From Promethearchaeota archaeon (GTDB lineage Archaea > Asgardarchaeota > Lokiarchaeia > Sigyniarchaeales > SOKP01): a stretch of 44,247 nucleotides of DNA. Where the stretch lies: positions 98,965 through 143,211 of the forward strand of contig JAHPZI010000008.1 in assembly GCA_019058295.1 (NCBI GenBank), given 5' to 3'. Shown piece by piece: positions 10,841 to 12,875 of the stretch. The stretch's first letter is position 1. Each line of letters opens with the position of its first letter. Position numbers and translations under genes: made by a program. The notes beneath the pieces were generated by a model. It saw nothing but the letters and a program-made list of their open reading frames with translations, was not told the DNA's origin and did no database searches.

Positions 10841-11086
10841 TTATCTTAAATCTCTCTCTGGATTTAAGTCTACTCCCTTAAAAATTTCTTCGATCTGATC
10901 TATGGTTATTTTTTTCTCTTTTACCATTTGTCGAATGAATTTATAGGCTGCGCATTCATATTCTTTTTCCCAATATTCTTGGTCTTCAGCATAGAAATTA
11001 CATTTATGGCAAACCGCGTTTATTAGCTGCCTATTTAAAGGGCTTATATCTTCTTCAGTTCTTAAAATTTCATGTTTTTTTCCCAT
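10841..11086 (-). CDS. small CxxC...C hypothetical protein, probably co-transcribed with the rSAM/SPASM gene
   Basis: 81 aa; starts 26 nt after the rSAM stop with SD-like GAGTGA; CHKC plus a third Cys (YECAAY). Confidence 0.7.
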   Translation of the reverse strand: MGKKHEILRTEEDISPLNRQLINAVCHKCNFYAEDQEYWEKEYECAAYKFIRQMVKEKKITIDQIEEIFKGVDLNPERDLR

Positions 11087-11112
11087 ATATAATCACTCTT
11101 TTATTTTTTTAA

Positions 11113-12447
11113 TTAGGTATGAATTTTATTATAGACTATACACTTGTAGGGATCAATCCCATAGAGGTCATTAGTATGCTTTAAAGCACGATACCTACAA
11201 CCTCCTCTACACTGATCTAAATATTCGCAATTAAGACTTTTACATTTCAAATCATTTATGTCCCATATGCAAGATTCTTGAATTCCCTTCCAACTTTCTT
11301 TTAATCCTAATTCTAATACATTTCCGGGACTTTTCTCAGTGAAAAAACCGCATTTAGATACTTCTCCAAGCACATCAATCGCCATTAAAAAAGGGCCACA
11401 TGCGTATTCTCTTATAACACCTTCATCTTTAGACTTTTCTTCTGCAATTGACTCTTCTTCTGAACCCGATTCCTCAAAAGAGACTCCACTAAAATCATAA
11501 GATTCACCCCACCAGTAATCTCTCATAATTAAACCGCCTTCTTCTGGTGTTATATCATATTTTTCTATAATTGATTGAGGTGTAGAGCTATCAAATGTAG
11601 GAACTTCAACGATCCATGTTTTAATGGGACCAAGCGACCTTAAATATTTCGCTAGCTCATCGAATTCTCTTAAATTCTTTTTATGAACCATTGTGTTAAT
11701 GGATACTTTAATTTCTTCATCTAACATTAGCTTTATGCCTTGAATAGAATCTTTAAAGCATTTTGCATTGCGGAAATCATTATGAGTATCTTCCAATCCA
11801 TCTATACTCACAAAAACCTCAATATTATTCTTTTTTATTAAATCTAAAAGATGTTTCTGTTTTTCAATTAATACTCCATTTGTTAACAATACTTTTTTTA
11901 TTGGAATATTTATTAGAAATTCTAATAATTCTTCAAGTTTTTCATAAAGGAAAGGTTCTCCACCTGTTAAAATAAGCTTTTCTCCCTGCAAATTATAGAA
12001 TTCCTCAATTAATTCCTTTAATTTATCAAAAGAAAAATCTACTTGGTTTTTATCTGTAATATAACAGTGTTTGCAATTTAAATTACATTTTTCTGTGATA
12101 TTAATCATAAGGAATTTCAGATAGGGAGGATCAAAAGGATTCTTCTCTGGAAGATTCAAATGCTTAAGTGAATTTACGGTTTTATCAATTATCTCAGTAT
12201 CGCTTAATTTTATAATACCTTCTTCTTGAAAAAATTCGAGAGCTTCAAGGACTTTCTTACCCTCAGTGTCATTATATTTTTTTAATATATCTACGATACG
12301 AATTTTCCCATTTAGCTTTTTTAATAATTCATATGCTTCCTCATCAATAGTAAAATCTTCATTTGTGTCTAAGTTAAAGAGATCAATTTCATCATATCTT
12401 CTTAGCAAAATATTTTTAGGAATAAATGGAAAAGATTCATAGTTCAT
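11113..12447 (-). CDS. radical SAM/SPASM enzyme with N-terminal PqqD/RRE-like domain; putative RiPP maturase
   Basis: CNLNCKHC, LTGGEP, TNG, VSIDG; SPASM-like YACG..GEVSKC..CKSLNCEYLDQCRGGC..DPYKC; the first ~85 aa fit a three-strand, three-helix PqqD pattern. Confidence 0.88.
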   Translation of the reverse strand: MNYESFPFIPKNILLRRYDEIDLFNLDTNEDFTIDEEAYELLKKLNGKIRIVDILKKYNDTEGKKVLEALEFFQEEGIIKLSDTEIIDKTVNSLKHLNLPEKNPFDPPYLKFLMINITEKCNLNCKHCYITDKNQVDFSFDKLKELIEEFYNLQGEKLILTGGEPFLYEKLEELLEFLINIPIKKVLLTNGVLIEKQKHLLDLIKKNNIEVFVSIDGLEDTHNDFRNAKCFKDSIQGIKLMLDEEIKVSINTMVHKKNLREFDELAKYLRSLGPIKTWIVEVPTFDSSTPQSIIEKYDITPEEGGLIMRDYWWGESYDFSGVSFEESGSEEESIAEEKSKDEGVIREYACGPFLMAIDVLGEVSKCGFFTEKSPGNVLELGLKESWKGIQESCIWDINDLKCKSLNCEYLDQCRGGCRYRALKHTNDLYGIDPYKCIVYNKIHT

Positions 12448-12633
12448 AGGTAATTATTGAAGTAAGAAAATAAAAAGTTTAATGTAATGAAATAAAAATC
12501 CCGAAAAGAAAGTATTCAGTAAATTATTTTAGTTTTATTTTCTAAATAATTTTCCAACTCGTCATCTTATAAAAAATAATCACTGAATTTTCATACTGGA
12601 CTCTAAAATTATCATATTCTGATACTTTATAAC

Positions 12634-12648
12634 CAGAGAATTTAAATA
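12634..12648 (+). promoter_or_regulatory. candidate BRE + TATA box for the Cys-rich peptide gene
   Basis: CAGAGAA-TTTAAATA, 60 nt upstream of ATG 12701; weak evidence given the AT-rich background. Confidence 0.3.
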
Positions 12649-12700
12649 ATTAAAAAATTATTCTTTCTTTGATCAAAAATTACCTATAGGTTTGATAATA

Positions 12701-12829
12701 ATGAAAATAGTAAAGAAAGTAAAAAGAACTAGTGCTGCATGCAAATGTGGCGACAGTTGTATTTCAAATGGCTGTAAATGTGGAGACAGCTGTATTTCAA
12801 ACACTTGTAAATGTGGAGATTCCTGTTAA
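12701..12829 (+). CDS. 42-aa Cys-rich repeat peptide, putative RiPP precursor (alternative: metallothionein-like); missing from the ORF track
   Basis: Manual translation MKIVKKVKRTSAACKCGDSCISNGCKCGDSCISNTCKCGDSC*; repeats differ almost only synonymously; SD-like AGGT upstream; hairpin plus T-tract downstream. Confidence 0.88.
   Translation: MKIVKKVKRTSAACKCGDSCISNGCKCGDSCISNTCKCGDSC
12740..12826 (+). repeat. 33-bp tandem coding repeat, about 2.6 copies (CKCGDSCISNx)
   Basis: tgcaaatgtggcgacagttgtatttcaaatggc / tgtaaatgtggagacagctgtatttcaaacact / tgtaaatgtggagattcctgt. Confidence 0.95.
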
Positions 12830-12831
12830 GC

Positions 12832-12875
12832 GGAGATTCCACTTAAGATTGAGATCTCCATTTTCTTTTTTTTTT
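12832..12875 (+). terminator. hairpin plus oligo-T terminator after the peptide gene
   Basis: GGAGAT (12832-37) pairs with ATCTCC (12854-59), followed by TTTTCTTTTTTTTTT. Confidence 0.55.

Follow-up and report, generated by a model that had tools for sequence, protein, structure and literature searches.

What does a 42-residue, cysteine-rich reading frame do when it stands head-to-head with a radical S-adenosylmethionine (radical SAM) gene in the genome of an Asgard archaeon? We addressed this question for a stretch of 44,247 nucleotides from a Promethearchaeota archaeon of the Lokiarchaeia (contig JAHPZI010000008.1; the whole stretch is called the window here), in which an earlier note, made from the letters alone, had proposed an Asgard system for a peptide that is made on the ribosome and modified after translation (RiPP). 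All three genes named in that proposal are present in the window and lie as it had described them: the peptide gene and the radical SAM gene are divergent with a gap of exactly 253 bp, and the gene for an 81-residue CxxC protein, which proved to be a constant third component, begins 26 nt downstream of the enzyme gene on the same, minus strand.

12701..12829, + strand: precursor peptide gene, 42 amino acids (aa), ATG start (open reading frame (ORF), orthologues, synonymous-only variation, distant single-core homologues)
11113..12447, - strand: enzyme of radical SAM-SPASM type with an N-terminal domain like a RiPP recognition element (RRE), 444 aa (Pfam PF04055, AlphaFold model, Foldseek, profile against PDB)
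10841..11086, - strand: helper protein gene, 81 aa, CxxC...C (3' of the enzyme in related loci; distant homologues beside distant enzymes)

We propose, with moderate confidence, that these genes make up a peptide-maturation system, likely thioether-forming, whose product remains inside the cell and serves nickel/cobalt (Ni/Co) handling. From the sequence comparisons described below, it is very likely that the three genes constitute one functional module. The same comparisons are most simply read with the peptide as the enzyme's substrate, because a leader and an RRE-like domain are conserved together widely and because the enzyme has the architecture of peptide maturases.

The peptide has a basic N-terminus (MKIVKKVK...) within a basic leader of 13 residues (MKIVKKVKRTSAA). 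Three CKCGDSC cores with ISNx linkers between them come next, giving nine Cys in total, the last of which is the C-terminus. The three heptads of the window copy differ from one another only synonymously, including the use of AGT, AGC and TCC for Ser, and in 13 orthologous copies from related genomes every Cys is kept, with free exchange between TGT and TGC and among all four Gly codons. Because Cys is retained as the Cys and Gly codons change synonymously, the substitution pattern identifies the 42-aa ORF as a genuine gene under protein-level selection. The peptide is on record in only 5 clusters among 5.8 billion proteins; gene callers systematically miss this precursor.

We then compared the window genome with 24 others of its family and 16 genomes of three sister families. 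Enzyme orthologues (47-92% identity) occur in 13 of the 24 family members and in 0 of the 16 sister-family genomes, and the peptide profile finds a match in 12/14 genomes with an enzyme orthologue, the window genome included, and in 0/27 without one. The helper gene is directly downstream of the enzyme gene and co-oriented with it in 13/13 Lokiarchaeial loci, at an identity (74-98%) exceeding that of the enzyme. Peptide and enzyme usually lie 90 bp to 9.4 kb apart on the same contig: they are divergent in G005 and G007, as in the window locus, in G001 and G018 the peptide immediately precedes the enzyme on the enzyme's own strand, and it stands 0.7-0.8 kb upstream in G006 and G012. The last of these genomes has two peptide gene copies (L023, G012:C124; L038, G012:C275), the second of which lies away from the enzyme, beside DUF1848 gene fragments, and is preceded by the same upstream element as other peptide genes (see below).

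Distribution of the module in archaea and bacteria

Beyond the close orthologues there is a second tier of enzyme homologues, 30-40% identical over the whole length, in bacteria and other archaea. Two of the three distant loci inspected first have a ~20-aa ORF (M-K-I-K-K-V...CKC-x-x-S-C) and a helper homologue beside the enzyme. One of these has the peptide first, then the small protein and then the enzyme, the stop and start overlapping; in the other the peptide is downstream of the enzyme and a two-domain small protein is upstream on the opposite strand. The third locus ends 149 bp past the enzyme. Scanning species-representative genomes yielded 22 further family loci and 58 loci of other radical SAM/SPASM enzymes, so that 25 family loci form our distant-locus set and the 58 others serve as controls. 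The 22 further family loci come from Nitrospirota, Dehalococcoidia, Syntrophaceae, Methanobacteriota, Actinomycetota, Desulfobacterota, Geobacteraceae and Ca. Mnemosynella.

In its minimal form the distant peptide has ~20 aa, with a leader M-x-I-[KR]-K... and a C-terminal CKCxxSC. This pattern is found at at least 18 of the 25 family loci as against 0-1 of the 58 control loci, the sole possible control match being a form without the family's features; among the family loci lacking the pattern, three are cut by a contig end and one is apparently frameshifted. With the helper profile, enzyme-adjacent ORFs are matched at 13 family loci and at none of the controls. The gene order of the three parts is shuffled among the distant loci. 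Archaea and bacteria alike keep the peptide N-terminus and, along with it, the RRE-like domain of the enzyme, and neighbour clustering across the 25 loci revealed no fourth conserved gene. The earlier note had staked its proposal beforehand on whether homologues of the enzyme carry linked Cys-rich peptides: they do, both in Lokiarchaeia and in distant bacteria and archaea. The RiPP system it described is thus supported, whereas its Asgard label is not, as the module also occurs in Nitrospirota, Desulfobacterota, Actinomycetota, Dehalococcoidia and other archaea.

The helper family is present in 23 of 301 sampled Asgard genomes, spread over four families, and the peptide is single-core there. 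Since both the distant peptides and those of other Asgard families carry one core, the ancestral form was a leader with a single C-terminal CKCxxSC, and the triple core is a Lokiarchaeial elaboration. A natural variant resembling the bacterial minimal form is found in G007 (L041:5473-5535, - strand), where the peptide is contracted in frame to one repeat, 20 aa ending CKCGDSC, beside an intact enzyme and helper.

These distributions bear on the idea that the peptide is an unmodified, metallothionein-like metal binder whose nearness to the radical SAM pair is inherited synteny with no functional link. We consider this highly improbable, since the three parts co-occur in unrelated phyla in rearranged order, which inherited synteny cannot explain, and since the peptide is missing from all 27 related genomes without the enzyme. 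The nine Cys in CxC/CxxxC spacing do recall a metallothionein, as does a faint match to the plant PEC metallothionein PF02068 (E 0.076), but the three Cys that most homologues possess are too few to build a metallothionein cluster, and the match reaches 13.8 bits against a Pfam cut-off of 31.8. The idea would also accommodate the several kilobases of unrelated genes that separate peptide and enzyme in some genomes, and the candidate operator that the peptide gene has in common with a Ni/Co importer (see below).

Enzyme, helper protein and proposed chemistry

Against Pfam the enzyme matches only the radical SAM core (PF04055, E 2.5e-23). Its CX3CX2C motif (C121/C125/C128) is invariant in 56 aligned family members, and the same alignment contains seven further invariant Cys in SPASM spacing (C350, C366, C402, C407, C413, C417 and C436), including those of a CRGGCRYR motif; the full SPASM-like Cys array claimed from the bare sequence is therefore confirmed. 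The AlphaFold model (pLDDT 89, the predicted score in the local distance difference test) comprises an RRE-like domain at ~1-85, a radical SAM core at ~112-300, a low-confidence acidic insert at 318-344 and a SPASM region at ~345-440. The N-terminal 85 residues form a beta3-alpha3 domain ahead of the barrel, modelled as strands 13-17, 21-25 and 30-34 followed by helices 36-42, 51-55 and 60-75. The best whole-length Foldseek matches are SuiB, CteB, SkfB and TigE, with anSME also matched, over alignments of 467-486 columns. In a search of PDB sequences with the family profile, the alignments to SuiB, CteB and TigE start at position 8-18 and take in their RRE-bearing N-termini. The insert (window about 11416-11496) comprises ~27 Ser/Glu-rich, acidic residues with a pLDDT below 50 and is restricted to the closest orthologues, most family members being without it.

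Comparison with named maturase equivalogs (AlbA, SkfB, StsB, PapB, ACGX, GeoRSP, DynA, WgkB and others) returned only partial NCBIfam matches, to AhbD, NirJ, DynA, anSME, AlbA, StsB, PapB and ACGX, none of them near its cut-off. The highest score, 115 bits, compares with a cut-off of 500, and the best 25 of 81 models all fall far below theirs; the listed maturase models fare likewise with three distant enzyme homologues. A complex prediction for enzyme, peptide and 81-aa protein, with the last as the scored partner, returned a score of 0.00 without controls and weighs neither way on binding.

By analogy with CteB and SkfB, the closest solved relatives, thioether formation is the most likely chemistry. 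In the mechanism we envisage, the basic N-terminus M-K-I-x-K-K-x-K would act as leader and be bound by the enzyme's RRE-like domain, whereupon the enzyme's 5'-deoxyadenosyl radical would modify the C-terminal CKCxxxC core, threefold here, to give an intramolecular sulfur-to-carbon (thioether) cross-link of the kind made by CteB and SkfB. The presence of seven rather than eight SPASM Cys may leave one auxiliary-cluster iron free for a substrate Cys, as in CteB. The 81-aa protein would be an obligate accessory, either a metal or Fe-S binding partner or a peptide chaperone, and the mature peptide could serve as a carrier, store or chaperone for nickel (or cobalt).

The SCIFF (CteA)/CteB ranthipeptide system of Clostridia (PDB 5WGG/5WHY) has the same combination of RRE, radical SAM and SPASM domains and a short Cys-rich precursor beside the enzyme. 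CteB is among the best profile and fold matches, with its N-terminal domain aligned, yet the identity is only 16-17%. The system described here further differs from SCIFF in that the peptide has no NCBIfam match at E <= 0.1, and so none to the SCIFF model, in that CKCxxxC lies at the extreme C-terminus, and in having an obligate three-Cys protein and an operator link to a Ni/Co importer.

The StsA/StsB/StsC sactipeptide system of Streptomyces (PMC10288494) offers closely spaced Cys (CxCxC), Gly acceptors and a small third protein needed for full modification, and because it contains three Cys-to-Gly sactionines (PMC10288494), Gly-rich cores such as CKCGGGC can be cross-linked. StsC, however, is a discrete RRE, whereas the enzyme described here carries its RRE as a fused domain and the fold search gave the third protein no RRE-like match. 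With the StsB model our enzyme reaches 76 bits against a cut-off of 625, and the bacterial cores of this enzyme family (CKCKSSC) are without Gly, unlike StsA. PapA, the precursor of the ranthipeptide freyrasin, likewise carries repeated short Cys motifs in one precursor, cross-linked there by a single radical SAM/SPASM enzyme, PapB. The CKCGD of the window copy fits the PapA CX3D motif, but the Asp of CKCGDSC is a non-conserved column, with GGGC or GGDC in the orthologues and Gly in most, so that a PapB-type CX3D rule does not apply to this core; the PapB model reaches 65 bits on the enzyme against a cut-off of 340.

An archaeal parallel is CrpA/CrpC of Methanococcus voltae (TIGR04463; PMC13692751), which also combines an RRE-radical SAM-SPASM enzyme with a Cys-rich repeat substrate. 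CrpC installs ranthionine cross-links on CrpA with the help of a related second protein, CrpB, and a metal-related role is suspected for the crp cluster because it is induced on pyrite (PMC13692751). CrpA is large, with a 47-residue N-terminal recognition region and ten 17-residue CxxQ/D repeats, whereas the substrate here has 20-42 aa and the enzyme apparently belongs to another family; the CrpC model TIGR04463 is not among the best 25 of 81 NCBIfam matches of our enzyme. Proteins under 100 aa were left out of the CrpA/CrpC study (PMC13692751).

The helper protein has the invariant residues C26-x2-C29...C45, F31, Y32 and E44, with a near-invariant acidic/aromatic stretch between the Cys. Its model (pLDDT 83) is small, compact and helical and has no fold match above Z 3.5 among 48,161 PDB representatives; in Pfam and NCBIfam it has insignificant matches only (DUF7175, E 0.012; DUF3079, E 0.016 for a distant homologue). 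There are ~140 close homologues on record, all the named ones being 'hypothetical' proteins of Lokiarchaeota/Promethearchaeota, and the family as a whole, which has both single- and double-domain members, amounts to 222 clusters at 50% identity in a set of 1.84 billion representatives; a protein atlas returned only unnamed clusters. A 474-aa metagenomic match to the helper profile (P0335) was considered as a possible fusion to the enzyme and rejected: it is a receiver/PAS-type protein, with a response-regulator receiver, a PAS-like region and a C-terminal double three-Cys domain, and represents either a signalling fusion or a gene-calling artefact.

Given that the helper always adjoins the enzyme and is conserved above it, and that its gene overlaps the enzyme start codon in some loci, we asked whether the 81-aa protein could itself be the true substrate or a co-substrate, cross-linked from Cys to invariant acidic residues in the manner of QhpD/QhpC, with the peptide acting as a metal sensor or decoy. 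Whole-protein thioether substrates have precedent in QhpC and CrpA (PMC13692751), and the three invariant Cys with their near-invariant acidic/aromatic stretch would suit such a role. However, helper and peptide have no leader-like region in common, the helper's acidic residues are variable among distant homologues, and its model is compact and helical with no extended core, whereas it is the peptide whose N-terminus is conserved from archaea to bacteria alongside the RRE-like domain, as expected of a leader. We regard a helper substrate as rather improbable and retain the peptide in that role.

Neither an exporter nor a leader peptidase nor an immunity gene is conserved near the module, at the Lokiarchaeial or at the 25 distant loci; the earlier note had remarked that no protease or exporter is adjacent. 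Since the module is accompanied by neither of these, its product probably remains inside the cell. An ordinary secreted sactipeptide or ranthipeptide of the bacteriocin or archaeocin type would fit the maturase architecture, with CteB and SkfB as closest structures, and the patchy distribution among genera; it would not explain a core near-invariant across phyla, unlike those of fast-evolving bacteriocins, or the probable co-regulation of the peptide with a metal importer, nor would the missing export, peptidase and immunity genes be expected. We therefore judge a product of this kind quite improbable, and an antibiotic function in general unlikely; the same three observations, namely the absent genes, the near-invariant core and the operator common to the importer, argue for an intracellular Ni/Co role.

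A candidate operator shared with a nickel/cobalt importer

The metal part of our proposal derives from the DNA upstream of the peptide gene, where the following features were found together with a counterpart elsewhere in the window.

12591..12618, + strand: candidate operator TCATACT-N14-TCATATT, conserved 5' of the peptide gene in related genomes
12641-12648, + strand: TATA-like TTTAAATA, ~22 nt downstream of the candidate operator
12831..12879, + strand: inverted repeat GGAGAT...ATCTCC followed by a T-run, read from the sequence
4545..4572, - strand: second operator copy TCATACT-N14-TCATACT, 86 nt upstream of the importer gene nikM/cbiM
1706..4458, - strand: Ni/Co importer operon of energy-coupling factor (ECF) type (Pfam CbiM, CbiQ, ABC_tran), consisting of
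3787-4458, - strand: importer M component, begins MHIPDG (Pfam CbiM)
3468-3785, - strand: importer N component, small, PDGLE-like (faint PDGLE match, no CbiN match)
2455-3258, - strand: importer Q component (Pfam CbiQ)
1706-2464, - strand: importer O component, ATPase (Pfam ABC_tran)

The element TCATAYT-N14-TCATAYT precedes every Lokiarchaeial peptide gene, often twice, ~22 nt before the TTTAAATA box. In the window genome the exact pattern occurs 6 times at a spacing of 14, compared with 0-4 times at other spacings. When a weight matrix built only from the peptide promoters of other genomes was scanned across the 3.2-Mb genome, the peptide promoter ranked first (23.9 bits) and the nikM/cbiM promoter (4545-4572) second (23.4 bits), with the next site at 19.1 bits, leaving these two as the only strong sites. 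The same element is found before cbiM/nikM in 4 of 5 relatives tested (G001, G006, G012 and G024). Because the candidate operator is common to both, we infer that the importer operon is co-regulated with the peptide gene. The inverted repeat and T-run 3' of the peptide gene look like the terminator of a separate short peptide transcript, and every orthologous locus has a T-run 3' of the gene. The peptide would be transcribed alone in this archaeal family.

The importer operon is complete and of nikMNQO/cbiMNQO type, and its CbiM and CbiQ matches in NCBIfam are below cut-off. CbiN marks cobalt systems and the unrelated NikN nickel systems (PMC2667541), and since the importer has no CbiN match, the evidence leans towards nickel rather than cobalt without settling the choice. 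The element itself resembles the sites of NikR-controlled regulons (PMC545781, PMC2667541): it is 28 bp long, has two half-sites of 7 bp with 14 bp between them, and stands before a nikMNQO-type importer. Published NikR sites measure 27-28 bp and have half-sites of 7 bp, that of enterobacteria being ATCATAC (PMC545781). The window genome has two NikR-type (NikR_C) genes (C14:88261-88425 and C19:20821-21015). We know of no RiPP-like peptide gene that belongs to a NikR-type regulon. In other Asgard families (L162-L165, from G314, G104, G077 and G093, and L169, from G066) a palindrome, GTATTAC-N14/15-GTAATAT, stands once or twice before the single-core peptide; it is close to GTGTTAC-N13/14-GTAACAC, the published NikR box. 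A genome search for this palindrome in those families did not find it before cbiM; in G066 it occurs 3 nt ahead of a gene of the CobN/Mg-chelatase family, and G077 and G093 have it before an ABC-2 permease.

A common operator could also point to the peptide as scaffold or precursor of a metal or sulfur cofactor, whether a Ni/Co/Fe-S species or an excised cofactor, along the lines of PqqA/PqqE or MftA/MftC. Such a role would agree with one or two copies per genome, with the spread of the system through anaerobes, with a Cys-rich helper and with a module devoid of exporter or immunity genes. Many of these anaerobe groups are known for Ni and corrinoid enzymes. We nevertheless think a cofactor precursor unlikely, as the module has neither a peptidase nor another tailoring enzyme as a conserved neighbour, and as the three tandem cores of Lokiarchaeia would better suit a stoichiometric binder. 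A more specific form of the intracellular Ni/Co reading, in which the cross-linked peptide is a dedicated intracellular Ni (or Co) metallochaperone or store under a NikR-type switch common to the importer, widespread in strict anaerobes and enlarged to three units in Lokiarchaeia, is possible, and we put it forward tentatively.

Several observations weigh against the proposal of an intracellular, thioether-forming Ni/Co system. Peptide and enzyme are not always close: in G013, G017 and G024 the enzyme has the peptide 3.6-9.4 kb upstream of it and unrelated genes intervene, in G011 the two are on separate contigs, and in G014 and G023 the peptide profile has no match despite the enzyme, although the G014 contig ends at the enzyme. 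The N-terminal domain had been called PqqD-like, a description that holds at the level of fold (the whole-length SuiB/CteB matches and the profile alignment) but not of sequence, as the Pfam PqqD model finds no match in the enzyme, residues 1-110 included; by its model, the domain is RRE-like in fold and not a member of the PqqD family by sequence. As to the chemistry, the reaction type is not transferable by homology because every listed NCBIfam maturase model falls far below its cut-off. Within the core, Lys is the sole side chain conserved besides Cys, and none of the known thioether acceptor motifs (CX3D, NxxC, CxxQ/D) is conserved in the peptide orthologues. The metal, too, is ambiguous, since such elements also precede a BtuF/FhuD-type binding protein, where the same element is found in G024, and a CobN-like chelatase in G066, where the palindrome is a different one. 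Finally, the candidate operator resembles published NikR sites in size and half-site, but its half-sites are direct where those of NikR are inverted. The NikR box GTGTTAC-N13/14-GTAACAC, allowing at most one mismatch per half, occurs in 1/25 family loci and 2/58 controls and is thus not enriched; because it is not enriched at the bacterial loci, the metal link is shown for Asgard lineages only.

Novelty and surroundings of the locus

Searches of the literature on Asgard/Lokiarchaeota radical SAM RiPPs and on SPASM enzymes, nickel and Cys-rich precursors found no description of the system, and Pfam and NCBIfam contain no model for it. It is apparently of a known kind, an RRE-radical SAM/SPASM enzyme with a Cys-rich precursor, that belongs to no described family. 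What is new is the minimal precursor with a C-terminal CKCxxSC, the obligate three-Cys partner without a fold match, the breadth across anaerobes and the operator tie to a Ni/Co importer. To our knowledge, nearly all characterised RRE-type radical SAM/SPASM peptide makers produce secreted antibiotics or signals of Firmicutes and Actinobacteria. The present module is compact and strongly conserved, makes do with a minimal precursor of 20 residues, and occurs in archaeal and bacterial anaerobes that include Asgard relatives of eukaryotes. Were its peptide to handle metal, RiPP chemistry would reach into core metal homeostasis and there would be a testable handle on the nickel/cobalt supply to the enzymes of these organisms; an intracellular metal carrier would add a new functional class to the RiPPs, one of housekeeping peptides that traffic metal rather than of secreted bioactive compounds.

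The genes around the module vary. A 340-aa IF-2B-family gene, 79-85% identical, lies divergently beside the peptide in G024, G013, G012 and G018 (L034, L035, L038 and L040), four genomes of three genera in which G012 and G024 are congeneric; the arrangement points to IF-2B-like gene, peptide, enzyme and helper as the ancestral order. Genes for an alpha/beta-hydrolase and a DUF1848 protein often come after the helper. In the window, two Ras-family small GTPase genes flank the peptide locus, and these flanks are conserved only within the genus. They belong to a cluster of eukaryote-like signature genes at 6161-8147 (- strand), 10305-10838 (+ strand) and 12932-13468 (- strand), comprising a Gtr1/RagA-type GTPase, a faint longin-domain match and the two Ras-family GTPases.

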